Shown: positions 1,235 to 55,945 of the stretch, piece by piece
Layout of the letters: every line of letters begins with the position of its first letter
Position numbering within the stretch: position 1 is the first letter of the stretch
Origin: an uncultured bacterium
GTDB taxonomy: Bacteria; B130-G9
Assembly (NCBI GenBank): GCA_965372715.1
Contig: CBDVDH010000003.1
Span: forward strand, 34,495 to 98,494
DNA length: 64,000 nt
Reading direction: 5' to 3'
The notes under the pieces: generated by a model
The model's input: the letters and a program-made list of their open reading frames with translations, nothing else
The model's database searches: none
What the model was told of the DNA's origin: nothing
Translations under genes and position numbers: made by a program

Positions 1235-2194
1235 ATGCGTAAGACCTGTCCAACACACAAAGGGACCGTATTATCGGTCAACATCTCGACCCAAAAAGGC
1301 ACGATAAAGACACCTGTCAAGAGTGCTAATGTCACCGAGCGGGGCATCGAGGGCGATGCGCACGCTGGTCAGTCTCATCGCCAGGTTAGCCTGCTGAGTC
1401 AGGAGAGCATCGACCGCTTCTCGACCCGGGTGGGGCGTGAGTTTGCGCCGGGTGAGTTCGCCGAGAACATCACCACACGGGGCATCGACCTATCACAAGT
1501 TGCGTTACTGGACCAGCTTGGCGTCGGCGAGACTCGTCTTGAGGTGACTCAGATCGGGAAAGCCTGCCACCCGGACGGGTGCGCCATCTTCAAGCAGGTT
1601 GGACAGTGTGTCATGCCCAAGGACGGCATCTTCTGCCGGGTGCTTCACGGTGGTAGGATCGAGCCCGGCGACACCATCAGATATTACCCACGTGGTCTAA
1701 CGTCTCGGGTTATCACTCTCAGTGACCGGGCGAGCCGGGGTGAATACGAGGACAAAAGCGGGCCTCTCGTCACCGTCATTCTAAATAGTTTTTTCGGGCC
1801 CAAACGTTGGCGCCTCGAAATCGAGGGTTACGTGCTTCCCGATGACCCGGACAAGCTTAGAGACCACCTTGAGCGGGCGCGCCAGGACAAGGTCGATGTG
1901 ATCATCACGACCGGCGGGACGGGGCTAGGCCCCCACGACATCACCCCGGACGTTGTTGCGCCTCTCTGCGACAAGCTCATCCCAGGAATCATGGAGCACA
2001 TTCGGCTCAGATACGGACAAGACAAGCCGAATGCACTCTTGAGCCGCTCCATCGCTGGCGTCATGGGGCAGACGCTCATCTACACGCTCCCAGGCAGCGT
2101 CCGCGCCGTCGAGGAATACATGACCGAGATACTCAAGACGCTGGAGCATCTAATCCTGACGGTCCACGGCATCGATCCACATACGCCCGACTAA
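1235..2194 (+). CDS. MOSC-domain / MoaB-MogA (molybdopterin-binding) fusion protein
   Basis: The N-terminal ~150 aa resemble a MOSC beta-barrel (GDAHAG...QVSLLSQES...GEFAENITTRGIDL...G.T.LEVTQIGKACH). The C-terminal ~150 aa carry a MogA/MoaB fold (DVIITTGGTGLGPHDITPDVVAPL...IPGI...SRSIAGVMGQTLIYTLPGSVRAVEEY). It lies in the moaA-moaC context. Confidence 0.7.
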   Translation: MRKTCPTHKGTVLSVNISTQKGTIKTPVKSANVTERGIEGDAHAGQSHRQVSLLSQESIDRFSTRVGREFAPGEFAENITTRGIDLSQVALLDQLGVGETRLEVTQIGKACHPDGCAIFKQVGQCVMPKDGIFCRVLHGGRIEPGDTIRYYPRGLTSRVITLSDRASRGEYEDKSGPLVTVILNSFFGPKRWRLEIEGYVLPDDPDKLRDHLERARQDKVDVIITTGGTGLGPHDITPDVVAPLCDKLIPGIMEHIRLRYGQDKPNALLSRSIAGVMGQTLIYTLPGSVRAVEEYMTEILKTLEHLILTVHGIDPHTPD

Positions 2195-2575
2195 GTCGGG
2201 AAGTCGGACAAGTTCAAAGTTCAAAGTCTCAAGTTGACGTTGCCCTTCATCGCCATTCGTGCTTATTCGTGTGCATTCGTGATTCCCCTCTTCCGCTAAG
2301 AACTGTCCCAAATTGGACAACTAGGGAAACAGCGTATTGCCATATACAGCGCACAACGTCGGTGAACAGTGGGCTAATGCGCTAGATTCACGGTCGTCCG
2401 GATTCAGGGCCGGCTTAGATTGAGGGCCCGTTCTCCGCCTCATCCGACGTCACAGCCATGACACACTGGTGTGGGGCGGGCTTTCAGCCTGCCAGAGTCC
2501 GGGTTTCCCGCGGCGAGCCCCGCCCGCTTGATGGAAACCACGAATGAACACAAATAACCACGAATCAACGGGGCG

Positions 2576-2728
2576 TGTAGGGGCGGCTCAGGGAGGCTGG
2601 GTCATAAGTCGTTGCGGTTATGTAGGGGCGTGGTCTCAGCCCCGCCCTTTCGAATTGATGGTCGCATAAGATGCCTCGTATCCGCAGGGATTCATGTACG
2701 CGGGCGGGTCTGAGACACCGCCCCTACA
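2576..2728. repeat. Composite GC-rich hairpin repeat (family A: GTAGGGGCG / CGCCCCTAC arms plus GGCTGGGTCATAAGTC motif)
   Basis: Two GTAGGGGCG...CGCCCCTAC-type stem-loops. Related copies at 48362-48535, 53576-53680, 56473-56510 and 58401-58439. A partial inverted copy lies at 2835-2875 (GACTTATGACCCAGCCTCCAGGAGCCGCCC). Confidence 0.65.
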
Positions 2729-3522
2729 GGCCGATTCCGACAATCGCGTCGCGAATGAAAACTGCCGCGTTGATCTTGACAATCGGCCGTATTCCCTGTA
2801 TCGTTGTTGTGTGAATAGACAACGAAATCCTCGTCAATTGACTTATGACCCAGCCTCCAGGAGCCGCCCTCCGCAGAATCATTAGGGATTGTGCACGCAA
2901 GAATAACAGTGTCGTAACCCCGGACTTATTGGACAGCCTCTGGAACCCGGGGGCTAATACAACCGTGACCTGATGCATCGCCACTGCTTGCGCCGGGCGA
3001 TGATTTGCCAACCGCCAACTGGCAACTGCTAACTGCTAACTGGTAACCGCCCGATAGACGGCTTCGACTCGCCGAAGGACAGGCGAACTACGGCGGACTA
3101 TGTGGACAAGAAGGGAAATTGGGGACGACCTATGCCCGCCAGAAAGGTTCAATGCGGTCCCTGACGAATCCTGAAACGGCTGATCGCAAGAGGTCCTTAG
3201 CGCACCGCCTCGTTCCAGTTTGTGCCCGCTGTGAACGCGGCTGTAAACACCTTGTCCAGCAGCGATTCAAGGACACGGGCATGCGGTCGAGGCAAAACGG
3301 CTTCGGAAACTTGATGGCCTTTAGATACGTCGCAAAGTCGCAACGCCTCGATACGCGCTGGAACCAATTCAAGGAAGCGGCGTGACAATTACCCACAATC
3401 TGGACACAGACCCAGGCCAAGGGGCCGGGGGCACTGTTTGACAATTGAGCTTACACAGCCGATAGTTGCTGCTCAAACATCAGCATAGTAATTGGCAAAC
3501 TCTGAAAGGATAGGGGGTCGAG

Positions 3523-5703
3523 ATGGAACTCTGGCCGGACAGCATCTTGTCACAGAACCTACGGCTTCGGCGATGGTTCTTGGTCGGGCTGGTTCTGCTG
3601 CCGCTCATCCTGACGTTTCCGGCAATTCGAGCATATTACCAGGGCCAGGCTTGGGCGGACTTCAGACCGCAGACGTGGGCTGAGATAGGGGGTTATGTAA
3701 CCGCTGACTACGAATACTGGGAGCCAGAGTTCTATAGGCCACTGGCCAGGATACTACCAGCGCTGGAATACAAGCTTTTCGGCACGAACCCGGTTGTACC
3801 CAGAGCAGTCTTTTTTGTGGCCTATTCTGCAACCTGTCTTCTAGTGTTTCTCATTGTAGAGGCGTTGTCTGGAAGCTTCCTTACAGCTGCGGCCGCTTCT
3901 CTGATCTTCACGGTTATGCCAAGTCACGTTCTTCCTGTCTTCAAGATGTCGCCGAATATCACGGCGGTTTGGATGTGTTTGGCATTATTGACGTTCTGGC
4001 TGTTGGGACCTGGCTATCACAGGAAGCCATCCTGGCGTAAGGTTGCGATTGCCTTCGCCTCATATTTAGCTGGGATACTCTCATATCCACACGTACTACT
4101 CATCCCCGTCTTACTACTCGCTTATGAGCTACTGTGGGGGGCGCAGGATGCTCGGAGTTCTGTGAAGAGAACCTTACTCAGGCTGCATCTGCCGCTGTGG
4201 CTGATCACTGGGATGTTTTTGGCTCTGAGGTGGCGCCTTTTGAGCCGGCTGAGCGGGGAGGCAGATTGGTACCTGAACGGGGTCAAAACACTTACGATCA
4301 CCAAAGCTGCCGAGACAATGATCTGCCTGGTCTATGGAGGTATTTTCCCACTTCAGCTATCGCCGGCGCTTATTACTGCTAGCCTGCTTTTGCTTTATTT
4401 CGGTTTCCGGTCAAACTGGCGTTTCTCGCTATTCTTGCTGATATGGATAGTGATCGCCCCCTCCTTCAGCTACGCACATGCCGAGTTGTTGTGGCAGCGG
4501 CTCTACCTCTTCACATTTGGGGCTGCGGCTTTTATCAGCTATGTTCTGGTTTTCTGCCTTGGTGGGCTTCTGGACTCGAAACGGCACTCGGAGCGGCTAT
4601 CCCGGATTCTCTCTGTCCTAGATTGGGCGATTGCGATACTGATTGGTTACTGGGTGTTCGAGTTGCTGAGGATGGGTTGGGCGGATATGTTCCTTGGAGA
4701 GAGTCTGAACGGGCGTCTGAGATTCGTGGCTGCCGCCATTGTGGCAATTGCTGTTGTCCTGCGGTCTATTGTCTCCAAGAACGTAACGCCAAGATTCTCC
4801 AAGCAGCCGCTCAGATTCATCTCGGTTGGCCTCGTTGCGGTCATAATTGGTGCTTACGGCGCTGGTTTCGTGAACCAGCTGGGAATGAACGTTGCCCTAT
4901 CAGACGAGATGGAAATGGTCCCCAAAGCAATTGTCAAGGTCCAGCCGCAGGTGCCGGACAACACGCTGATCTTAGTTGTGGTAGGCGATGAGCTCTTGAG
5001 TAAGCTGGGAAGCTCTCTCGGCCAGCTGGATGACTGCCTACGCAGCGAGTATGGCAAGAACGTGAGTTCGTATATCTTTAGCGATTGGGTGAGGATGGCT
5101 CAATACCGAAAGATACCCCAACAGACTACCGTTTTAGCTTTCAGGTTTGACGGTGAGCGAGCTGTCCGGGACCAAGAGCTTGCCGCTCGGATACTTGCCA
5201 GGCAGCGCTCCTATCTTGGGCTCTCCTCGGATGTAATACATGCCCAAGTTCGCGCTCTCCCGGCTGTGGCTGGCGATTTTCGCCTCACGCCCAACGTAGA
5301 TTCGATGTTAATCGACAAGGCAGAGCTACATATCGAGGCCCCAGTGGATGAGGTTGTAGCTCGGGTTGAGTTTGGGTCGGATGGGCTGCTGCTGGGTGTC
5401 ATGGAACTCCAGGCTCACGTGGAGGGGACAAAGGCTACAATCGCTCTGGATCGGCAGCATCAATGGCAGCTGGCTGGTGTCCTAGACTGGGTCAGCATCT
5501 CCGCAGTTCCGCGGGGTAAGCCCGTGACTATTCGCCAGGCCAGCCTGCTACAAACAAGAGGCCTGATTGTTGCTGTTCTACCGCAACATAAGCCGGTTGG
5601 GGCCGTCACATTCCTGCTCGGGAGCTCAACCCAACGCCCCTTTGAAAAGGTAACCACATTCCTTATGGCGGACGAGACTGAACGGTGCATCGCGATCCCA
5701 TGA
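3523..5703 (+). CDS. Polytopic membrane protein, possibly a GT-C-fold glycosyltransferase, with a ~330-aa C-terminal extracytoplasmic domain
   Basis: AGGGGG RBS before ATG 3523. About 11 predicted TM helices in the first ~400 aa. An acidic/aromatic loop (DYEYWEPEFYRP) follows TM1, as in GT-C enzymes (ArnT/PMT-like). It sits next to WecA-like and Glf-like genes. Function is inferred from topology and context only. Confidence 0.45.
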   Translation: MELWPDSILSQNLRLRRWFLVGLVLLPLILTFPAIRAYYQGQAWADFRPQTWAEIGGYVTADYEYWEPEFYRPLARILPALEYKLFGTNPVVPRAVFFVAYSATCLLVFLIVEALSGSFLTAAAASLIFTVMPSHVLPVFKMSPNITAVWMCLALLTFWLLGPGYHRKPSWRKVAIAFASYLAGILSYPHVLLIPVLLLAYELLWGAQDARSSVKRTLLRLHLPLWLITGMFLALRWRLLSRLSGEADWYLNGVKTLTITKAAETMICLVYGGIFPLQLSPALITASLLLLYFGFRSNWRFSLFLLIWIVIAPSFSYAHAELLWQRLYLFTFGAAAFISYVLVFCLGGLLDSKRHSERLSRILSVLDWAIAILIGYWVFELLRMGWADMFLGESLNGRLRFVAAAIVAIAVVLRSIVSKNVTPRFSKQPLRFISVGLVAVIIGAYGAGFVNQLGMNVALSDEMEMVPKAIVKVQPQVPDNTLILVVVGDELLSKLGSSLGQLDDCLRSEYGKNVSSYIFSDWVRMAQYRKIPQQTTVLAFRFDGERAVRDQELAARILARQRSYLGLSSDVIHAQVRALPAVAGDFRLTPNVDSMLIDKAELHIEAPVDEVVARVEFGSDGLLLGVMELQAHVEGTKATIALDRQHQWQLAGVLDWVSISAVPRGKPVTIRQASLLQTRGLIVAVLPQHKPVGAVTFLLGSSTQRPFEKVTTFLMADETERCIAIP

Positions 5704-5872
5704 TTCAGCACCGATTCTCACGAGCGTTATCACCGTCATGATTTGGCCAAGATTCATGTGGGTTTTTGTGGTAGTTCGAGGTTCGAATTGGATGGAGATT
5801 GTCTTGTCATTGAGCCAGGGGACGGCGACTGCCAACCGCCAACTGCCAACTTGCAGCCGCTCGATAAGACGG

Positions 5873-6994
5873 CTATTGCTTCAGAGCTTCGTGGGAATCG
5901 CTGTCAGTTGAGCCGCGAGCCACCTTCGCCGCCAGGGACGCAACGTGTTTCTCAAGGTATGCGAGCGTCTTCAGCGCTAGGACGAGGCCCATTGCCAGGA
6001 TAATCAGGATAAGGAAGGTGTATTTGAACGGGATAAGGACCGTGATGAAGGCGATGACGCCGAGATATGCGGAGATGAAATAGATCAGTTTGACCGCTTG
6101 GCGCTGCGACAGCCCGAGAGCGAGCAGCCTGTGGTGCAGATGCTCCCGGTCGCCCTCAAACGGGTGCGTTCCTCGAATGAGCCTCCTCAAGAAGGCGAGC
6201 ACAGTGTCCATCAGGGGGACCGCCATCGAGGCAATTGGGACCAAAAGGGCGACCGCGACTGTGCTTTTTGAGGCGCCGAGAAGCGACATTGCGGCGAATA
6301 TGAACCCGAGGCACATGCTTCCGGTGTCGCCCATGAAGATGCTTGCGGGAGAGAAATTGTACTTGAGGAACCCCAGGACGGCGCCGGCGACCGCGAGAGA
6401 CAGGAGGCCGATCTCGTAATCACCCCGATAGACCGCCACCGACATCATCGTGAGTGAGGCGATGAAGACGATGCCTGCTGCGAGTCCGTCGAGGCCATCT
6501 ATGAGGTTTATTGAGTTGGTTAGGCCCACGACCCAGAGCACGGTCAGCATCACGCCAACTATGGCCGGAACGGCAATTGAGCCGGTTTCCGAAAGCGGCG
6601 ACGTGAATTTCTCGATATTGAAGCCATAGACAAGGAGCACGATTGCCGCAGCTATCTGCCCCGCAAGCTTGACAGTTGGCCGCGCGCCCTTGGTGTCGTC
6701 GTAGATGCCCACTCCCATCAGGATGAGGCATCCGAGGAAGATACCGGTCAGCTTGCTGCCCAGCAATTCTCCCAGGTCAGGGTGCAGGGACGTGCCCAGA
6801 AGGACCGCGGCCACAAACGCGACGATAATCGCAATGCCGCCGAGCGATGGTATCGGATGGGGGTGAATCTTCCGACGACCCGGCACGTCCATAGCGCCGA
6901 CGCGCCTCGCAAACGCTCTGACGACCGGGGTGAGAATCAAAGAAACCACCGTGCCGGCTGTGATAACGATGACGTATGTAAGCGGCAGGCTCAT
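5873..6994 (-). CDS. Polyprenyl-phosphate N-acetylhexosamine-1-phosphate transferase (WecA/TagO/MraY family, GT4 superfamily)
   Basis: Multi-TM protein with the MraY/WecA motifs NSINLIDGLDGLA and DDxxG (GIYDDTKG) and a HHRLL-type cytoplasmic loop. Confidence 0.8.
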   Translation of the reverse strand: MSLPLTYVIVITAGTVVSLILTPVVRAFARRVGAMDVPGRRKIHPHPIPSLGGIAIIVAFVAAVLLGTSLHPDLGELLGSKLTGIFLGCLILMGVGIYDDTKGARPTVKLAGQIAAAIVLLVYGFNIEKFTSPLSETGSIAVPAIVGVMLTVLWVVGLTNSINLIDGLDGLAAGIVFIASLTMMSVAVYRGDYEIGLLSLAVAGAVLGFLKYNFSPASIFMGDTGSMCLGFIFAAMSLLGASKSTVAVALLVPIASMAVPLMDTVLAFLRRLIRGTHPFEGDREHLHHRLLALGLSQRQAVKLIYFISAYLGVIAFITVLIPFKYTFLILIILAMGLVLALKTLAYLEKHVASLAAKVARGSTDSDSHEALKQ

Positions 6995-7003
6995 TCAATA
7001 GTT

Positions 7004-7156
7004 CCAAGTTTCAAGTTTCAAGTTCAAGGTCGAAGGCCCAAAGTCAGTTGTCAGTTGGCCGTATTCATCCTTCATGCTTCATCCCTCTTCTGTGTCTCTG
7101 TGTCTCTGTGGTTCACTGCAATCCGCAATCGGCAATCCGCAATCGGCAATCCGCAG
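7004..7156. repeat. Cluster of short triple-tandem motifs in the wecA-like/glf-like intergenic region
   Basis: CAAGTTTCAAGTTTCAAGTTCAAGG (7004-7029). CTGTGTCTCTGTGTCTCTGTGG (7090-7111). GCAATCCGCAATCGGCAATCCGCAATCGGCAATCCGCAG (7118-7156). Confidence 0.7.
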
Positions 7157-12866: not shown

Positions 12867-12875
12867 GGGTTCTCT

Positions 12876-13691
12876 GTGTCTCAGTGTCTCTGTGGTGAGA
12901 GGATAGACGTCGTGAAGGAGAACGAACCGGAGCGGAGTGCGAGGAGGCCGGCTGTTACGTTGATGTATTCGGGCGGGTTGGATTCGACGGTCACGGCACT
13001 GACGCTTGCCGGGCAATACGACAAGGTTCATTTGCTCACTTACGCCCGGGGTTATGGTCACTGGTTCGTGGGCCGGTCAAGGGTGCGCGTCCCGGAGCTC
13101 GAAAAGCACCTCGAAAGGAGCGTTTTCACTCAGTTTAGAGCCAGCGTGAAGGGACTCTTCAAGAAGATCGTCCTCGATAGCTTCGTCGCGGATTTCAGGA
13201 AGTACAAAGCGTTGTTTATTGTCTGCGTGGGCTGCAAGATGGCGATGCACGCCCGTTCGGTGATCTACAACCTCGAACACGGAATCCCATGCGTGTCTGA
13301 TGGGTCCGCCGAGACGACGGCCTGGATGCCGGACCAGATGCCGGTCACGCTGGCCGAATACAAACGGCTTCACGAGGACTACGGGCTGACCTACTCGAAT
13401 CCTGTCTATCACTTCGGCACCCGGGAGAAGGCGCGTGAGACGCTTCGCGCGGCGGGCCTCTCGATGGGGCGCCGCATCGCGGACCGGGACTTCGGGACGC
13501 AGCCTGTCTGCCTCTTCGGCGACGTAATCACGATATTCCGCGAGTTCATGAAGGTCGGCCTCCCGCTGAAGGAGGAGAGCATCGTGGATTTCATGCGTGA
13601 GAAGCGGCCAATCCTCGACGACTACATCAAGGATTACTTTGTCCAGAACGGCCTTGATTTATACGAGCTGAAGGAGCGGGTGGCCCAGTGA
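12876..13691 (+). CDS. PP-loop ATP-pyrophosphatase superfamily protein with conserved CxxC...C; paralog 2
   Basis: LMYSGGLDSTVTALTL, VHLLTYARGYGH, FIVCVGCKMAMH, GTQPVCLFGD. Collinear with paralogs 1 and 3. Confidence 0.65.
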   Translation: MSQCLCGERIDVVKENEPERSARRPAVTLMYSGGLDSTVTALTLAGQYDKVHLLTYARGYGHWFVGRSRVRVPELEKHLERSVFTQFRASVKGLFKKIVLDSFVADFRKYKALFIVCVGCKMAMHARSVIYNLEHGIPCVSDGSAETTAWMPDQMPVTLAEYKRLHEDYGLTYSNPVYHFGTREKARETLRAAGLSMGRRIADRDFGTQPVCLFGDVITIFREFMKVGLPLKEESIVDFMREKRPILDDYIKDYFVQNGLDLYELKERVAQ

Positions 13692-13984: not shown

Positions 13985-15454
13985 CTATCCCCCCTTCATC
14001 TGCCCCTTCAATAGCTCAAGGTTCTCCCGGACAAGTCTCGTCTTCGGATGATCGTCGCCCAGGAACTTCCTGAATATTGCAATCGCCCGCTCATAGCACT
14101 CCTTCGCGCCGTTCAGATCGCCAAGGGCCTTAAGCACCAAGCCAAGATTATTCACGCAAGTAGCAACTGTCGGATGGTCCAGGCCATAGGAATCCTCAGC
14201 TATAGAACGACCCCGCTCACAAGACTTCTTAGCGCTATTCAGATTGCCAAGGGCCTGAAGCACTATGCCAAGATTGCTGACCCGAATGGCAACGTTCGGA
14301 TGGCCCGGGCCAAAAGCCTTCTCGTCGATAGCAAGCGCTCGCTCAATACACTTCTTCGCGCCATTCAGATTACCAAGGGCCTGAAGCACTATGCCAAGAT
14401 TGCTGACCCGAATCGCAACGTTCGGATGGTCCGAGCCAAAAGCCTTCTCGTCGATAGCAAGCGCTCGCTCAATAGACTTCTTCGCGCCATTCAGATCGCC
14501 AAGGGCCTGAAGCACTATGCCAAGATTGTTCAGGTGAGTCGCAACTTCAGGATGATCAGGGCCAAAAGCCTTCTCGTCGATAGCAAGCGCTCGCTCATAA
14601 CGCTCCTTCGCGCCGTTGAGATCGCCAAGGTCGCGAAGCACCGAGCCAAGATTGTTCACGTCCCTCGCAACATCGGGGTGGTCCGGGCCATAAGAAGCCT
14701 CGTCTATCTTAAGTGCTCGCTCAAAACGCTCCTTCGCGCCGTTGAGATCGGCAAGGTCTTGAAGCACCATGCCAAGATTGTTCACGTAAGCTGCAACTGT
14801 CGGATGGTCCGGGCCATAGCAAGCCTCGTGTACGGCAAGCGCCCGCTCATAACACTCCTTCGCGCCCTTCAGGTCACCAAGGTTCTGAAGTACCGAGCCG
14901 AGATTGTTCACGTCAGTCCCAACTCGAGCATGATCGGGGCCAAGAGCCTTCTCGTCGATGGCAATCGCTCGCTCAAAAGACTCCTTCGCCCCTTTCAGGT
15001 CACCAAGGTCCTGAAGTACCGTGCCGAGATTGTTCACAATCGTCGCAACCTCGGGATGATCTGGGCTATAGACCGCCTCATAGATCGCAAGCGCCCGCTC
15101 GTAACAGTCCTTGGCCTGTGAGAAGTCAGCGCGGCCTCCCAGATACAGGCCAGCCTGATTGAGCAGGCGCCTGAGAGCATTCGAAGCCAGGCCAATCGCT
15201 TCCGCGTGGCCGGCCGCGGCGAGCGCATGCGCTATCAGCCGGGAGCATTCGGACCAGGTCGTAACGTCATGACTGTCGTCCGGAAAGGCGTCGTTCAGTA
15301 GCTCGACTGCCGCCTCGACCAAATCAGTTTTGTTCTGACCTGACAGCCTGTCTCGCGCGACAGCCTGAAGCAATCGGTGCAGGCTGGCGTGGTTTCCTTC
15401 CCGGTCGATCAACGAGTAGCGCTTCAGGTTCTGGACGGCCTTGTCGAATCGCAT
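13985..15454 (-). CDS. TPR-repeat segment (C-terminal part of an interrupted TIR-NB-ARC-TPR STAND protein)
   Basis: About 10 tandem 42-aa TPR_10/12-like units (NNLG.VLQ.LGDL.GAKE..ERALAIDEKA.GPDHP.VA). It is in the same frame as the upstream NB-ARC ORF. The sequence just after the in-frame TAG (LKRYSLIDREGNHASLHRLLQAVARDRL) is the winged-helix motif normally contiguous with NB-ARC. Confidence 0.8.
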   Translation of the reverse strand: MRFDKAVQNLKRYSLIDREGNHASLHRLLQAVARDRLSGQNKTDLVEAAVELLNDAFPDDSHDVTTWSECSRLIAHALAAAGHAEAIGLASNALRRLLNQAGLYLGGRADFSQAKDCYERALAIYEAVYSPDHPEVATIVNNLGTVLQDLGDLKGAKESFERAIAIDEKALGPDHARVGTDVNNLGSVLQNLGDLKGAKECYERALAVHEACYGPDHPTVAAYVNNLGMVLQDLADLNGAKERFERALKIDEASYGPDHPDVARDVNNLGSVLRDLGDLNGAKERYERALAIDEKAFGPDHPEVATHLNNLGIVLQALGDLNGAKKSIERALAIDEKAFGSDHPNVAIRVSNLGIVLQALGNLNGAKKCIERALAIDEKAFGPGHPNVAIRVSNLGIVLQALGNLNSAKKSCERGRSIAEDSYGLDHPTVATCVNNLGLVLKALGDLNGAKECYERAIAIFRKFLGDDHPKTRLVRENLELLKGQMKGG

Positions 15455-47278: not shown

Positions 47279-48259
47279 ATGTCGGAGATATTTGGGGCGA
47301 TAGACATCGGGACGGGTTCTGTGTTGTGCCTCGCGGTGGAAGAGTCGGCGGATGGCCTGGGCCGGGAGATCGTCAACGAGAGCGTCATAACTGCTCTTGG
47401 GGCGGGCACAGGGAGCGACCCCTCTGTGCGGCAAACGAGCATCGAGCGCACCCTCGCGCCGGTCATCGACTACGTTCAGAAGCTGCGACAGGCCGGCGCG
47501 ACGAGCATTTCAATCGTCGGCACGAGCGCGCTTCGCGAGGCGCCGAACCGGGACGAGTTCATTGAGAGGGTTGAGCGGGAGACGGGCCTCAACGTTGAGG
47601 TGATAAGCGGCGAGGAGGAGGCCCGGCTGACGTTTTGGGGCGCGGCGCACGACCTTTCGACCCACGCGGGGCCAACTGTCGTGATGGACGTGGGCGGCGG
47701 CAGCACGGAGCTCGTTTTTGGCCGTCCGGGTGGGGCAAGGACTGGCGGGGCGACTCCACCCGAGCTCGGCGCCAGTCTCGCCATCGGCTCACTTACCCTC
47801 ACGGATAGATTCGTTACGCGATATCCAATAAGCACCGTTGAGATGAAGCGATTAAGAGCCAGCATCCGCGACGCTCTGGCCGTTGAAAGCGTTGAAGAGC
47901 TCGTTGCACGGGTGAAGAGCGAGTCGGCCAGCCCGCTCTTGGTTGCCGTCGGGGGCTCGGCGACGACGCTGGTTGCGATGGAGCACGAGATTGCGCCCTA
48001 CGTGCCCGCAAGGGTCCACAAGACGCGAATCTCGCGGGAGGTCATACTCAAGCATATCGAGAGGCTCGGGAAGATGTCGCTTTATGAACGTTATGCAGTT
48101 CCGGGCCTGCCAAGCGGTCGGGCGCCCGTGATTGACGCCGGGCTATCGATACTGCACGAACTCTTGGAGCTTTTTGGCGCGGATGCCATGACGGTCTCCG
48201 ACAAGGGCCTCAGATATGGCGTCATCGTCCGTGACAGCCGGCCCCCGCACGCGTGGTGA
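47279..48259 (+). CDS. Ppx/GppA-family exopolyphosphatase / guanosine pentaphosphate phosphohydrolase
   Basis: ASKHA-fold motifs (AIDIGTGSVLCLA ; VGTSALREA.N ; E.ISGEEEARL...G ; DVGGGSTEL). Confidence 0.8.
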   Translation: MSEIFGAIDIGTGSVLCLAVEESADGLGREIVNESVITALGAGTGSDPSVRQTSIERTLAPVIDYVQKLRQAGATSISIVGTSALREAPNRDEFIERVERETGLNVEVISGEEEARLTFWGAAHDLSTHAGPTVVMDVGGGSTELVFGRPGGARTGGATPPELGASLAIGSLTLTDRFVTRYPISTVEMKRLRASIRDALAVESVEELVARVKSESASPLLVAVGGSATTLVAMEHEIAPYVPARVHKTRISREVILKHIERLGKMSLYERYAVPGLPSGRAPVIDAGLSILHELLELFGADAMTVSDKGLRYGVIVRDSRPPHAW

Positions 48260-48361
48260 GGCTCTCAAACCACAATTCGGTTGAGGGCTTGTCTCCGACC
48301 ATACCGACACCAACATCTTGTGTTGGAAATCGGGCACAGGAAGGCTGTTTAATAATTCGCT

Positions 48362-48535
48362 GTGGGCCGGTAGGGGCGCGGTCTCTGACCCGCCCGCCTA
48401 CATGAATCCCTGCGGATACGAGGCATCTTATCCCGAATAATTCAAGGCCGTGACTCTCGTCGGTGTAGGGCAGGCTTTCCGAGGCTGGGTCATAAGTCGG
48501 TGTCGGGCATCGTAGGGGCACTGCTTGCCGTGCCC
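48362..48535. repeat. Composite GC-rich hairpin repeat (family A), homologous to 2576-2728
   Basis: 48369-48430 is ~90% identical to the reverse complement of 2664-2728. 48462-48535 resembles 2576-2650 (GTAGGGCAGGCTTTCCGAGGCTGGGTCATAAGTCG...). Confidence 0.65.
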
Positions 48536-48559
48536 TTCTCTGATCTGACTGAACCCATC

Positions 48560-48586
48560 AAGGGCGGGGCAAGCACCGCCCCTACA
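48560..48586. repeat. AAGGGCGGGGCAAGCACCGCCCCTACA hairpin unit (family A)
   Basis: Identical 27-mer recurs at 48887-48913. Related unit at 23546-23571. Confidence 0.7.
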
Positions 48587-48886
48587 GACATCACTGCCCG
48601 TTGGGAGCCAAACTCCAGGCGTTTCGATCCAATAGAACACGGCCACATTGATCTTGACAATTGGCAGCATTTCTTGTATCATCTTTGTGCAAGTGAACGA
48701 AAGAACCTCCACGCGCCGACTTATGGGACAGCCTCTTCCAGCCTGCCAAAGACAGAGGCTCGCGCAACAGAGTGTTTCATGTGAGGGATACGGAGATCGC
48801 TGCAAAAGGCAGGCTGGAAAGCCCGCCCCACATCTCATCGCATCCTCAGTTTGTGAATAATACGGGTTATGCGACCATCAATTCGA

Positions 48887-48913
48887 AAGGGCGGGGCAAG
48901 CACCGCCCCTACA
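48887..48913. repeat. AAGGGCGGGGCAAGCACCGCCCCTACA hairpin unit (family A), second identical copy
   Basis: Exact 27-nt repeat of 48560-48586. Confidence 0.7.
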
Positions 48914-48986
48914 CGGCGTTTACGCACGTCACACCACAATTGGTCAGCACCTCAAAAAGAGGCAGTTATCCGTGAGTGGCATGCGC

Positions 48987-51092
48987 TCAGACGTATTGCA
49001 GCCGATACAGGTCGTAGTAGATGCCGCGCCTCGTCAGGAGTTCTCGATGGGTGCCTTCCTCGCGGAGGCGACCCTTGTGCAGGACGATGATGCGGTCGGC
49101 GTGCTCTATTGTGCTGAGGCGGTGGGCGACGATGAGGCATGTTCGGCCCTTTGTCAGGTTGATGAGGGCCTCCTGAATGAGTGACTCGGTCTCCGGGTCG
49201 ATGTTCGAGGTCGCCTCGTCCAGGACGAGTATTCTTGGGTCAAACGCCAGCACACGGGCGAACGCCAGCAATTGCTTCTCGCCGGCCGACAATGTCGCGC
49301 CTCGTTCAACAACAGGCTCCTCGAGACCTTTGGGGAGGCGGGAGATGAGGCGGTTTGCGCGAGCAATTTGGACGCTTTTTTCAACTGTCGCATCGTCGAT
49401 GCCCGCCTCATTGAGCCTGATGTTGCCTCCGACAGTGGTAGAGAAGAGGAAGACGTCCTGCTGAACCACGCCGATCATCTTCCTGAGGTTTTCGAGCGAG
49501 AGTCGGGCGATGTCGGCACCGTCGATGAGTATCTTTCCCTTTTGGAGAAGGTAGAGGCGCGACAGCAGGCTTGTCATCGTCGTCTTCCCGGCGCCGGTCG
49601 CGCCGACTATCGCGAGCGTTTCGCCGGGCCTCACCTTGAATGAGACGTCCTTCAGGACCCAGTTATCGTCGCCGTAGGCGAACCAGACGTCCTTGAACTC
49701 AACGCTCGTGTCCCTCGGCGCGGATACTTCGGGCAGCGCGGCGATTCTCGGCTCCACGTCCCTGTCCAGCAGCTGGAAGATCCGCTCGGAGGACGCCATC
49801 GCGGCCTGGATGATGTTGAACTTCTCCGTCAAGTCGTGTATCGGCCTGAAGAACATCCTCATGTAAGCGATAAACGCGACGAATATGCCCAGCGTAACCT
49901 CATTTTGGACAACTCGGCCGCCGCCATACCAGATGATGAGCGCGACCGCCGTGTTGTTCAGAATCCAGACAGTGGGTCTGAAGACGGCCATTATCATTAT
50001 CTGTTTCTTTCGCCATGAGAACACTTCGTGGTTGACGTCCTGGAACTTCTTGTCGATCCGCCCCTCCTGGCAGAACGCCTGTATCACGCTCATGCCGGAG
50101 ATAAACTCCGCGAACGACGCGTTCATCTTGGCGATCTTGACCCTTATCTTGCGGTATGCGCTTCGCGCTTTTCTTCGGAACACGATCGACACGTATATGA
50201 CTAGTGGCAGGATGGTGAACGCGACGAGGGCGAACTTCACGCTCATGTAGAGCATGACGCCGGCGATGGCCAGCAGCATCAGCACGTCCTTGATGATTGT
50301 AATGAGAATCGCGCCGAACATCTCCTCCAGCGTGGAGAAGTCGTTGGTGGTTCGGGTTACGAGTCGTCCGACCGGAGACCTGTCGAAGAACGCAAGAGGC
50401 AGCCTTTGGATGTGGTCAAACAGGGACAGCCTCAGGTCGAAAAGCGCCCGCTGGCTCGTGTATTGCATCAAATAGACGTGAGCGTAGAAGATGATGAAGT
50501 TGACGACGAGTATCGACAGGAAGATGACGCCCAGGGTCTTCAGGCCGCTCAGGTCTTTCCCACGCAGCGTGAGCAGGTCCCCGAGCGGCAGCTTGCTGAG
50601 CTTTTCGACCTCGACGTAGAAGCCACCATCGGATTCTGCGAAGGCATTCTTGCGACAGATATCCGCAACCTGCCGCCATTTGCTCGGCGGATAGTTGCTC
50701 TTCAGAATCAGATAGATGCGCTCGTCGCCGATCAGTCCTTTGTCTCCTAGAAGCTTGAGGTCGGCGGACAGCAGGTTGTTGGTCTGCGTGGTGTCGATAA
50801 GGAACTCGGTCTTCGATATGGGCACGAGCAAGTCCTTGTATTGCCGATAGAAGCGCTCACGAAGCGAGTTGTCTTCGAGCGTTATCATCTTGCTCGCGAC
50901 CGCGATGTGCCGGTCGATGGCCAGCCGCGTCAGATACGGCAGCGAGACGTCGAATCCCGCGCTTATGATGACAAGGAACGCGCAAAGCGCGATGATCGGC
51001 CAATAAGGCTTGGCATACTTGAGCAGGCGCTTCATCAGGCGCCAATCGTAAGGCCGGTCTAGAGCATCCTCGGGGTAGTAATCGTCATTCAT
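48987..51092 (-). CDS. Fused ABC exporter (TMD + NBD, MsbA/type-I exporter family), subunit 1 of a probable heterodimer
   Basis: 6-TM ABC_membrane domain with an unusually long N-terminal extracytoplasmic loop. NBD Walker A GATGAGKTT, signature LSAGEKQLLAFARV, Walker B LVLDEATSNID. Confidence 0.85.
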   Translation of the reverse strand: MNDDYYPEDALDRPYDWRLMKRLLKYAKPYWPIIALCAFLVIISAGFDVSLPYLTRLAIDRHIAVASKMITLEDNSLRERFYRQYKDLLVPISKTEFLIDTTQTNNLLSADLKLLGDKGLIGDERIYLILKSNYPPSKWRQVADICRKNAFAESDGGFYVEVEKLSKLPLGDLLTLRGKDLSGLKTLGVIFLSILVVNFIIFYAHVYLMQYTSQRALFDLRLSLFDHIQRLPLAFFDRSPVGRLVTRTTNDFSTLEEMFGAILITIIKDVLMLLAIAGVMLYMSVKFALVAFTILPLVIYVSIVFRRKARSAYRKIRVKIAKMNASFAEFISGMSVIQAFCQEGRIDKKFQDVNHEVFSWRKKQIMIMAVFRPTVWILNNTAVALIIWYGGGRVVQNEVTLGIFVAFIAYMRMFFRPIHDLTEKFNIIQAAMASSERIFQLLDRDVEPRIAALPEVSAPRDTSVEFKDVWFAYGDDNWVLKDVSFKVRPGETLAIVGATGAGKTTMTSLLSRLYLLQKGKILIDGADIARLSLENLRKMIGVVQQDVFLFSTTVGGNIRLNEAGIDDATVEKSVQIARANRLISRLPKGLEEPVVERGATLSAGEKQLLAFARVLAFDPRILVLDEATSNIDPETESLIQEALINLTKGRTCLIVAHRLSTIEHADRIIVLHKGRLREEGTHRELLTRRGIYYDLYRLQYV

Positions 51093-51113: not shown

Positions 51114-51211
51114 CCACAGAGACACAGAGACACAGAGAAAGAGTCGCTAGCGCGGTGCCAGTCCGACTTGTCGTCCACTCAGTCAATCTGCGTAATCTGC
51201 GTAATCTGCGG
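51114..51211. repeat. Short triple-tandem motifs between the two ABC exporter genes
   Basis: CCACAGAGACACAGAGACACAGAGAAAGAG (51114-51143) and AATCTGCGTAATCTGCGTAATCTGCGG (51185-51211). The second motif also occurs at 1187-1213. The first also occurs at 7090-7111 (reverse complement), 12869-12894 (reverse complement) and 23470-23488. Confidence 0.7.
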
Positions 51212-51221
51212 ACAGAACCTC

Positions 51222-53758: not shown

Positions 53759-55945
53759 TCACCCCTTCTTAATCATCAACTTCCTCGTGGCCGGAGCTGA
53801 CCAGCTACCGTCGTCGTCCTGAACCTCGAACGAGATCGTGTGTCTCCCGACGGAGAGACCGCTGGTAGTGAAGTCCGCAAGGTCGCTGAGAAACCCGTCG
53901 CGGTTGGAAGTCCACTTATAGGCAACGACGTCCCCGTCGCTGTCCGTGCCCGAACCAATGAAGTGAACCTCCTGGCCTTCTGTCGCGGGATTCGGGTCGA
54001 TCAAATCGATTTGAGCGGTCGGCGGCGTGTTCTCGCCCTCACCCGCGATGATCTCCAACGTGTCTGTGGCTGGCTCGGACCAGGCGCCGTCGTCGTCCTG
54101 AACCTCGAACGAGATGGTGTGCGTGCCTACCGTGAGCTCAATGGCCGGCTTAGAGAAATCCTCATCGGTGCTGAGGACCCCCCCCTCGAGGTTGGAAGTC
54201 CACTCATAGGCAACGACGCTCCCGTCGCTGTCCGTGCCTGAACCACTGAAGACAACCGTATGCTCGCCCTGTGTCGCCGGATTTGGCTGAATCGAATCGA
54301 TGTAAGCGGTCGGCGGCGTGTTGTCGCCCTCACCCGCGATGATCTCCAACGTGTCTGTGGCTGGCTCGGACCAGGCGCCGTCGTCGTCCTGAACCTCGAA
54401 CGAGATGGTGTGCGTGCCTACCGTGAGCTCAATGGCCGGCTTAGAGAAACTCGCCTGGGTGCTGAGGACCCCCGCCTCAAGGTTGGAAGTCCACTCATAA
54501 GCAACGATGTCCCCGTCGCTGTCCGTGCCTGAACCACTGAACACAACCGTATGCTCGCCCTGTGTCGCTGGATTCGGTGTTATCGAATCGATAACAGCAG
54601 TCGGCGGCGTGTTCTCGCCCTCGCCCCCCAGGCCCGCAACGTTGAGCAGCGGCTCCGGATTCGCGTCAGGGTCGCCCGTGAAGCCTTTCTCGCCATCTTG
54701 CGGGACGCTGTAGATATCAATCAAAGCCTGGCGAACTGCCGCAACGTCAGCCGCATTTGTGGGCTTGCCATTGACCCAAATGTTGCGATTGACCGAAATG
54801 TACAGGGCCGCGGCGCCCGCAACGTGAGGTGAGGCCATACTCGTCCCGCTTCCAGTCTCGTAGCCGTCTCCTAGATAGGTTGAGTAGATGTCAACGCCCG
54901 GGGCCGCTAGGTCGATTGCGGCGCCGGGAGAATTAACCGGATTGCCTTTGACAACACTTCGGCTGAAGTTGCTGAACGATGCGAACGTGTCATCGGCTCC
55001 GTAACTTGTTGCCTCACCACCACCGCCCGGTTGCCCGTCAGAATCAGCCATAGCCGACACAGCCGCTACTTCAGGGTAAGCCGCAGGAATAATATCGTCT
55101 CTGGTTCCGAACTTGCGATCACGACCATAGACATCTCTCCTGTCATTGCCAGCCGCCACGGCGTAGAAGACACCAGCAGCGACGCTGTTTTGGAGAGCGA
55201 GGCGGAGAGAATCAAGTTTCCCGGTCCCACTCAGGCTCATATTGGCAACGTCGATCTCGTCGGCACGCTCGGTCACCCAGTCTATCCCAGCGATGACCCA
55301 GGAAAAGTCTCCGGAGCCTGTGCTATCGAGCACTTTCACTGACCACAGCCTGGCGCCGGGGGCCACGCCAACCACGCCGATGCCATCGTCAATAGCGGCT
55401 GCGGTCCCTGCAACATGGGAGCCGTGGCCGTTGTCATCGTTGCCGTCCGGATTCTCACCTTTTGTGTTCGTGAAGTTGGCACCGCGATAACAATTGAGGT
55501 CCCGATGTGTGCTGATGCCAGTATCTATGATGGCGATATCCACATCCATGGGATCATCGTAGCCATCAATCTTGGCCGCCGGACTCGAATCAGCGTCAAT
55601 GCGATCGACGCCCGTGGGAGTCTCCTGCTGTATGGCATAGGCAATTCTATCAGGCTCAATGAATCTGACCCGGGGATCGGATTCCACGGCCCACAGCCTC
55701 TGGGCGGGAATGTGTGCGGAGAAACCCTTCAGCGCTACGCGATAGGTGTGGCCCACAATCAACCCATGCCGAGCTGATAGCTCGTGAGCCACATCTGCCG
55801 GATTAGCCACGTCATCATGTAGAACAATGATGAACTGACCGGGAACGATTTCGCTTGACTGTGGCGCGGTTCGGACTGATGAATCAGCCGCAACCACAAA
55901 GGCCAGCGTCAAGACCAGAAACGAGACCATAGCGATCTTCTTCAT
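53759..55945 (-). CDS. Secreted subtilisin-like serine protease (S8) with I9 propeptide and three tandem C-terminal PKD/Ig-like domains
   Basis: Signal peptide. Catalytic D/H/S motifs (AIIDTGI ; HGSHVAGTAAA ; GTSMASPHVAGAAAL). Three ~95-aa near-identical repeats (TPPTA.IDSI.PNPATQGEHTVVFSGSGTDSDG.VVAYEWTSNLE.GVLST...TVGTHTISFEVQDDDGAWSEPATDTLEIIAGEG). These are visible as near-identical ~285-bp DNA tandem repeats around 53990-54700. Confidence 0.85.
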   Translation of the reverse strand: MKKIAMVSFLVLTLAFVVAADSSVRTAPQSSEIVPGQFIIVLHDDVANPADVAHELSARHGLIVGHTYRVALKGFSAHIPAQRLWAVESDPRVRFIEPDRIAYAIQQETPTGVDRIDADSSPAAKIDGYDDPMDVDIAIIDTGISTHRDLNCYRGANFTNTKGENPDGNDDNGHGSHVAGTAAAIDDGIGVVGVAPGARLWSVKVLDSTGSGDFSWVIAGIDWVTERADEIDVANMSLSGTGKLDSLRLALQNSVAAGVFYAVAAGNDRRDVYGRDRKFGTRDDIIPAAYPEVAAVSAMADSDGQPGGGGEATSYGADDTFASFSNFSRSVVKGNPVNSPGAAIDLAAPGVDIYSTYLGDGYETGSGTSMASPHVAGAAALYISVNRNIWVNGKPTNAADVAAVRQALIDIYSVPQDGEKGFTGDPDANPEPLLNVAGLGGEGENTPPTAVIDSITPNPATQGEHTVVFSGSGTDSDGDIVAYEWTSNLEAGVLSTQASFSKPAIELTVGTHTISFEVQDDDGAWSEPATDTLEIIAGEGDNTPPTAYIDSIQPNPATQGEHTVVFSGSGTDSDGSVVAYEWTSNLEGGVLSTDEDFSKPAIELTVGTHTISFEVQDDDGAWSEPATDTLEIIAGEGENTPPTAQIDLIDPNPATEGQEVHFIGSGTDSDGDVVAYKWTSNRDGFLSDLADFTTSGLSVGRHTISFEVQDDDGSWSAPATRKLMIKKG

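Follow-up and report, generated by a model that had tools for sequence, protein, structure and literature searches.

GTAG-tagged REP sequences and the head-to-head dimers that they form (REPINs) are mobilised by RAYT/RayT Y1 transposases (Di Nocera et al. 2013, PMC3733652; Bertels and Rainey 2011, PMC3116915). The former study also describes REP dimers that regularly lie inside a longer inverted repeat, such as GTAG-15 of Anabaena variabilis and CGTC-1 of H. neapolitanus. REPs are in addition the targets of insertion sequences (IS), among them IS1397, ISKpn1, IS621, ISPpu9/10 and ISPsy8, and these REP-targeting elements belong to the IS3, IS110, IS4, IS256 and IS5 families (Tobes and Pareja 2006, PMC1525189). 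Earlier work covers REPs as such, their dimers and clusters, copies inside genes, dimers within longer palindromes and ISs that target REPs, and nested small mobile repeats are ordinary bacterial "junk" DNA. New at the locus studied here are its lineage and one particular family of miniature transposons, as well as how clearly the nesting shows, the layers being unusually legible.

We analyzed a 64,000-nt stretch of DNA from an uncultured bacterium, referred to here as the window. In it, the stop codon of a ppx-like open reading frame (ORF) at 48259 and that of a convergent ABC exporter ORF at 48987 are separated by a spacer of 727 nt (48260 to 48986). We regard it as probable that non-autonomous REP dimers and miniature transposons have accumulated in this island, one nested within another, between convergent genes. 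Homologues of ppx at 75% and 70% identity bear the name Candidatus Coatesbacteria, and the source lineage is, as judged from these sequences, related to that group. Such repeats were previously undescribed in this uncultured Candidatus Coatesbacteria-related lineage, which is not among the phyla listed by the REP survey (PMC3733652).

The first-pass annotation had described the spacer as devoid of a convincing coding sequence and richer in AT in its middle segment, and both descriptions held. No gene is called between ppx and the ABC exporter in the public record (ENA ERZ23499000, scaffold_14, 159 kb). A Pfam search with the six small ORFs overlapping the spacer returned nothing above threshold and one sub-threshold zinc-finger match; a conserved protein in the internal segment, which the same annotation had named as the finding that would count against a mobile element, was looked for, with no above-threshold Pfam match in the small ORFs of the island. 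The GC content at 48600 to 48750 was 0.46 to 0.49, versus 0.57 window-wide.

Two exact plus-strand copies of a 27-mer, AAGGGCGGGGCAAGCACCGCCCCTACA, had been noted at 48560 to 48586 and 48887 to 48913. Both coordinates were verified; the copies are 327 nt apart, and no other match with up to 3 mismatches was found (0 expected by chance). On the minus strand the 27-mer reads TGTAG GGGCGG TGCTTGCC CCGCCC TT, which folds into a 6-bp stem with an 8-nt loop and an unpaired GTAG. It corresponds, in reverse complement, to a REP hairpin with a GTAG tag; the island as a whole is a cluster of REPs. We refer to such units as the GTAGGGGCGGTGCTTGCCCCGCCC type. The string GTAGGGGCR occurs at 16 sites in the window, where 0.57 would be expected; five intergenic islands account for 13 of the sites, and the stems vary in a compensatory manner among copies (GGGCGG/CCGCCC, GGGCAC/GTGCCC and GGGCGC/GCGCCC).

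We then scanned one-genome-per-species data with the pattern GTAGGGGCNNNGCTTGCNNNGCCCTT and took 114 units for pairing counts. Matches occurred in more than 112 contigs from many phyla, including Armatimonadota, Acidobacteriota, Chloroflexota, Deinococcales, Nitrospirota, Desulfuromonadales, Cellvibrio and Phycisphaerae; the proviso that the 27-mer might be present only here does not apply to its REP type. The two variable stem positions were Watson-Crick paired in 106/114 and 104/114 units, and no shuffle reached values as high. Among distinct REP units, 64 of 93 cells paired, with a shuffle maximum of 48. An inverted partner lay no more than 110 nt away for 37 of the 114 units from other genomes. 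The stem-loop with an unpaired GTAG, the many extragenic copies and the compensatory stems that define a GTAG-type REP were thus all found.

The locus resembles the described systems in several respects. An unpaired terminal GTAG, a GC-rich stem of 6 to 8 bp with compensatory changes, a position between convergent genes, head-to-head dimers 20 to 100 bp apart and several REP types per genome are features shared with GTAG REPs and REPINs (PMC3733652, PMC3116915). The inverted REP pair that folds together with its spacer as one hairpin, a feature of REPIN-RAYT systems, was also present. The suggestion of a REP/BIME array made for this locus stood with respect to the REP identity (a GTAG hairpin, in a cluster) and failed with respect to BIME, since the orientations are nested rather than alternating: + + + at 48370, 48465 and 48512, followed by - - - at 48585, 48832 and 48912. 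A BIME of the E. coli type, with regularly alternating REPs and set linkers, was accordingly rejected.

The anatomy of the island is given below, with the strand in parentheses where one was assigned. REPIN-1 and REPIN-2 denote the outer and the inner dimer, REP-C the second REP type, shell the REP-C dimer and E-core the miniature transposon.

48370 to 48431 (+): left half of REPIN-1, consisting of REP arm GTAGGGGCGCGGTCTCTGACCCGCCC and part of the spacer, as aligned to an intact dimer
48428 to 48431: TTAT, left copy of the 4-bp duplication around a 435-nt insertion
48432 to 48866: inserted block that interrupts REPIN-1, consisting of the REP-C dimer shell and its nested content, with termini CCCGAATAATTCA and TGAATAATACGGG
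48464 to 48480 (+): 5' part of the left REP-C hairpin (TGTAGGGCAGGCT plus loop TTCC)
48477 to 48480 and 48736 to 48739: left and right TTCC target duplications
48481 to 48735 (+): E-core, a 255-nt miniature inverted-repeat transposon with terminal inverted repeats (TIRs) at 48481 to 48499 (GAGGCTGGGTCATAAGTCG) and 48717 to 48735
48512 to 48585 (+): inner head-to-head REP dimer (REPIN-2), with arms at 48512 to 48537 (+) and 48560 to 48585 (-)
48560 to 48586 (-): first copy of the 27-mer, the right arm of REPIN-2, with its inverted partner at 48512 to 48537
48648 to 48682 (+): promoter-like block, TTGATC TTGACA-17 nt-TATCAT, with the -35 at 48654 to 48659 and the -10 at 48677 to 48682
48736 to 48747 (+): right TTCC followed by AGCCTGCC, which is the 3' half of the stem of the split REP-C
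48748 to 48807 (+): spacer of the shell, with conserved counterparts in L123 and L131
48808 to 48832 (-): right REP-C unit (GGCAGGCTGGAAAGCCCGCCCCACA), inverted partner of 48464 to 48480/48740 to 48747
48867 to 48870: TTAT, right copy of the 4-bp duplication
48871 to 48912 (-): right half of REPIN-1, consisting of spacer GCGACCATCAATTCGAA and REP arm
48887 to 48913 (-): second copy of the 27-mer, the right arm of REPIN-1
48914 to 48986: single-copy tail adjoining the stop codon of the ABC exporter; over 65 nt it shares 71% identity with L114 to L116

The outer dimer is a filled site with an empty counterpart in the other island. When 48370 to 48431 and 48871 to 48912 were joined, they aligned end to end with the intact REP dimer at 2615 to 2735 (reverse complement). 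The break lies exactly at ...GGCATCTTAT|GCGACC..., and TTAT flanks both sides of the 435 nt (48432 to 48866), while uninterrupted dimers read ...GGCATCTTATGCGACC... with a single TTAT. The left half is 93.5% identical to a copy in L130, the right half is 88% identical to the reverse complement of 2621 to 2669, and the rejoined dimer folds as a hairpin (z = -3.4). The TTAT duplication of the shell is one clear case; a second copy of the shell (L131) has CTA/CTA, and its terminal repeats match poorly.

The first-pass annotation had also described a composite element, said to resemble 2576 to 2728 in the island at 2440 to 2880. The similarity is real; it comes, though, in two separately oriented modules rather than as one unit. 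Positions 48370 to 48431 are about 94% identical to the reverse complement of 2666 to 2727 (a longer BLAST alignment pairs 48365 to 48455 with 2732 to 2638 at 83%), and 48463 to 48502 are 83% identical to 2575 to 2614 in direct orientation (repeat family D7).

Within the inserted block, the left REP-C hairpin is split in its loop, with the layout TGTAGGGCAGGCT-TTCC-[48481 to 48735]-TTCC-AGCCTGCC. An intact REP-C in L131, TGTGGGGCAGGCTTTCCAGCCTGCC, folds into an 8-bp stem with loop TTCC and a GTGG/GTAG tag. The right REP-C unit is tied to 48736 to 48747 by a 12-nt perfect inverted repeat (I8) and is 96% identical to the reverse complement of 2470 to 2493. An uninterrupted shell of about 177 nt that lacks the core was found at 4714 to 4890 of L131, with 82 to 84% identity, and the left end of the shell recurs in L123, L129 and L133 at 90 to 97%. 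The innermost layer, REPIN-2, starts 11 nt from the left terminal repeat of the E-core. Its arms are 85% complementary (I2) and it folds as a single long hairpin (z = -6.6); matches to the whole dimer occur in many phyla.

Both 27-mers are one REP variant, namely the right arms of the innermost and the outermost dimers, the partner of the second copy being 48370 to 48395. The first-pass annotation had instead likened the pair to the ends of a MITE. Two exact copies 327 nt apart do invite the reading of a single MITE of about 350 nt. Against it, the 27-mers are direct rather than inverted, each has its own inverted partner, and their flanks differ, with no direct repeat or target duplication around them (cccatc|..|gacatc versus attcga|..|cggcgt). 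Moreover, intact copies elsewhere put the boundaries at 48432/48866 and 48481/48735. We therefore consider a single MITE extremely improbable. The more general idea of a MITE-like element survives in that miniature transposons do exist here, with the different boundaries 48432 to 48866 and 48481 to 48735. Short repeats may be identical and lie a few hundred bases apart without being the ends of one element.

The E-core is a multi-copy family. Its TIRs are 19 bp long, with 3 mismatches in the copy at 48481 to 48735 and an exact match in the copy at 2593 to 2857. Four sites in the window carry an 18-mer of the TIR, three of them exactly and one with 3 mismatches, versus 0.03 expected. A metagenome scan with this 18-mer returned 14 contigs, 12 of which are of window-like GC and carry the E-core family; no autonomous IS with these terminal repeats was found among the 14. 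We identified seven complete copies of 255 to 304 nt, besides partial copies and solo ends, one of the latter at 2923 to 2940 of the window. Some copies measure 264, 265 and 266 nt, differences that would not keep a reading frame. The E-core thus shows the features of a MITE: terminal inverted repeats, target-site duplication and a short, non-coding, multi-copy body. The duplications at the copies were as follows.

Window 2593 to 2857 (+, canonical): CAGG / CAGG, at 2589 to 2592 and 2858 to 2861
Window 48481 to 48735: TTCC / TTCC
L131: ACCG / ACCG
L120: AGAA / GGAA (3/4 match)
L123: TTCC / TTCT (3/4 match)
L128: TGGG / GGGG (3/4 match)
L130: CAAG on the left, the other end being truncated

Beyond the duplications, all seven complete copies are flanked by complementary half-stems of a GT[AG]G REP; the canonical copy, for example, lies inside the REP GGGGCGGCT..AGCCGCCC. 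Since REP half-stems flank every complete copy, the E-core inserts into REP hairpin loops. As single-stranded DNA, the E-cores fold into the expected nested hairpins (z = -5.5 for 48481 to 48735 and z = -9.6 for 2593 to 2857). In L129, a further layer was observed: a different element of about 400 nt (6334 to 6740), with terminal repeats like ACAATTGTACGCAT / ATGCGTATAATTGT and a duplicated GTCTCAGACC on its flanks, has an E-core copy as its host and lies in one REP arm there.

Correia/NEMIS elements of Neisseria and similar MITEs are short, intergenic, bounded by TIRs and able to form a long hairpin, with a promoter-like sequence near one end. The E-core shares its shortness, TIR boundaries, hairpin folding and promoter-like sequence near one end with these elements. 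It differs from them in duplicating 4 bp of a variable REP loop rather than TA and in that no IHF site was recognised (by eye, the conserved block holds no convincing match), and it has no sequence similarity to them. Like the REP-targeting ISs (PMC1525189), the E-core always lies within a REP hairpin; unlike them, it is a non-coding element of 255 to 304 nt rather than a full IS and bears a REP dimer itself. Unlike known REPINs, the dimers of the island are nested in one another and in a TIR element. In contrast to the palindromes of Anabaena and H. neapolitanus (PMC3733652), the outer palindrome here is a separate insertion with its own target duplication.

As in REPIN-RAYT systems, RayT genes flanked by the same REP were found, here in other genomes. 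RayT-like Y1/HUH genes with or beside this REP occur in L065 (1147 to 1569; Pfam PF01797), L018 (4180 to 4815), L017 and L055. Unlike those systems, no RayT/HUH gene was detected by regular expressions or phmmer in about 73 kb of the source scaffold (the window plus an 8.8-kb extension), nor in the related contigs searched in the same way. It is thus other genomes that link this REP to RayT. When a RayT sequence that includes the REP-encoded peptide of the window served as the query, a protein family of at least 7808 members was matched; the exact arm of the window, KGGASTAPT, was absent among the best 120 of these matches.

A separate observation concerned the RayT proteins themselves. Right after the HUH motif (MPNHxHGII), family members (seen in the RayT-like ORFs above and in proteins P0075-P0194) carry an insert of the form VGAxLAxP...(K/R)GAASSAPT, present in 104 of the 110 best parsed database matches, which at the DNA level is a head-to-head dimer of the window's REP type. 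Read in the frame of this insert, the 27-mer of the window gives KGGASTAPT. Being coded within the RayT insert might explain why this REP type is near-identical across phyla. A limited literature search found no description of a REP-encoded RayT insert.

We propose that the nested accumulation arose in the following manner. GTAG REP hairpins, as head-to-head dimers, would owe their copying to a Y1/HUH transposase of the RayT type that works on hairpins of single-stranded DNA, this enzyme being one that we infer. The shell of about 180 nt, a REP-C dimer, would have landed at TTAT, within the outer dimer's spacer. The E-core would then have entered the 4-nt loop of one shell hairpin, duplicating TTCC; its mover may have been a DDE-type transposase that targets REP hairpin loops and makes staggered 4-bp cuts. 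A REP dimer of its own and a conserved σ70-like promoter block lie within the E-core. The order of these events is likewise a proposal, and effects on neighbouring mRNAs, for instance by REP hairpins acting as 3'-end stabilisers, are conceivable. The locus would thus record the layer-wise growth of a REP cluster, in which dimers and hairpin loops are landing sites for small elements.

Relatives of the source organism place these layers in context. The gene order around ppx is kept in a Coatesbacteria MAG, and the ppx-to-ABC-exporter arrangement is kept in all relatives, with spacers much shorter than the 727 nt of the window:

L135 (ppx 95% identical to that of the window in amino acids): 11 nt between the stop codons
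L119 (82%): spacer of 30 nt
L117 (75%): spacer of 53 nt
L114 (81%): spacer of 170 nt

Compared with L135, the closest relative found, positions 48243 to 48972 form a lineage-specific block (26 nt in L135 versus 730 in the window); nucleotide identity is 96.3% up to 48242 and 94.6% from 48973. A duplication of GTGAG bounding the whole island was considered and dropped, as it is inseparable from alignment ambiguity against L135. No further copies of the outer flanks (48243 to 48369 and 48914 to 48986) were found except the orthologue in L114, and the final 13 to 22 nt or so of the tail can be aligned in all relatives. The L114 spacer holds a degenerate counterpart of the right-hand 27-mer (AAGGGCAGGCAAGCACCACCTCTGCA) together with about 65 nt of the tail, and the closer relative L135 has none of this. 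The piece is therefore old and was lost elsewhere, or was gained twice, and the order and age of the layers are uncertain. The C terminus of ppx reads ..SRPPHAW* in the window (48243 to 48259) and ..SRRQLDSGESS* in L135 (1181 to 1209); it seems that the insertion or an associated indel gave ppx a new C-terminal tail and stop codon.

REP hairpins may stabilise or end convergent mRNAs. An alternative to transposition is a BIME-type regulatory array selected by the host for termination, mRNA stabilisation or nucleoid-protein binding. The position between convergent genes that have no canonical terminator is in line with such an array, as is the report of REPs being found chiefly downstream of ORFs and functioning as RNA elements (PMC3733652). 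However, an 11-nt spacer between the stop codons suffices in L135, the REP orientations are nested rather than alternating, and the layers bear target duplications. We judge a selected array, rather than a product of transposition, to be unlikely.

The promoter-like block of the E-core matches 11 of 12 consensus positions. Of nine E-core copies, 8 retain TTGACA and all 9 the 17-nt spacing, and the -10 is TATCGT, TATCCT or TATCAT. When the diverged copy at 48481 to 48735 was compared with six canonical copies, the block showed an identity of 0.82, close to that of the terminal repeats (0.90 and 0.80), whereas the remaining interior showed 0.25 to 0.52. This pattern argues for constraint on the block, whose promoter function is putative. 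Its candidate roles are expression of a small RNA, former expression of a transposase gene that is now deleted, and protein binding, and that it is an active promoter appears to us rather improbable.

A small-RNA gene in the internal segment would be compatible with a mobile element: TTGACA-17-TATCAT would fire and give a transcript of about 50 to 230 nt, which could act in trans, pair in antisense with the ABC exporter mRNA at its 3' end or be a remnant transposase regulator. In its favor are the promoter block just described, with its consensus match, its kept -35 and spacing and its conservation between two subfamilies to the degree of the terminal repeats, and a hairpin that directly follows the -10 in both subfamilies in spite of differing sequences. 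Several results speak against it. No Rfam match at the gathering score was obtained across the whole window, and a search of both islands by E-value gave just chance-level miRNA-hairpin matches at 48200 to 49000 (E = 0.1 to 2). The RNA structure of the internal segment, put forward earlier as worth checking, gave no support, the putative transcript folding no better than shuffled sequences (z = -0.6). A terminator scan found no intrinsic terminator in the island, the -10 is followed by just 50 nt or so of element sequence, and the orientation to neighbouring genes varies among copies; the block may rather have served to bind a transposase or to drive a transposase gene that has been deleted. 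Taken together, a small-RNA gene has a rather low probability.

The same evidence bears on whether the E-core is a mobile promoter/small-RNA cassette that uses REP loops as safe sites, with a selected promoter and a functional RNA, an idea to which we give a rather low probability. If it were true, two unrelated transposition systems would be nested in one another, the REP dimers of a Y1 RayT and a TIR element that duplicates 4 bp, in the order REP dimer in TIR element, in REP, in REP dimer. In either case, the E-core offers a concrete starting point for experimental work on how targets are chosen and on promoters that move.

Other repeats were observed in and around the island. A degenerate copy of the E-core terminal repeat lies at 48340 to 48360, just left of the outer dimer, and is perhaps what is left of an earlier E-core in which that dimer was contained. 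A 13-nt direct repeat at 48265/48929 (family D3) is possibly due to chance. In relatives, a REP of the GTAGGGGCGGTTCACGAACCGCCC type lies inside a called Wzy_C/TPR gene of a Coatesbacteria MAG (L117, 8637) and another at the extreme 3' end of the EPSP synthase gene of L114 (3376 of 2105 to 3379). L114 also holds a tandem array at 13126 to 13418 (48-nt period, at least 6 units, reaching the contig end), in which REP-C-like units (GGCAGGCTGGAAAGCCCGCCCTACA) alternate with CTGCCAACCGCCAACT-type spacers.

Low-complexity intergenic motifs (TGCCAACCGCCAACT, TCTGTGTCTCTGTG, AATCTGCGTAATCTGCG and runs of ATTCGTG/CACGAAT) recur across the window, at 1185 to 1214, 2255 to 2290, 2538 to 2570, 3006 to 3041, 5830 to 5851, 7089 to 7120, 12873 to 12896 and 51174 to 51212, and the TGCCAACCGCCAACT motif is also found in L114. 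Finally, two large ORFs contain tandem arrays, at 14046 to 15101 (126-nt period, 7 copies) and 53772 to 54626 (291-nt period, 3 copies). The second lies in a Peptidase_S8/PKD protein, so the arrays are probably repeated protein domains.
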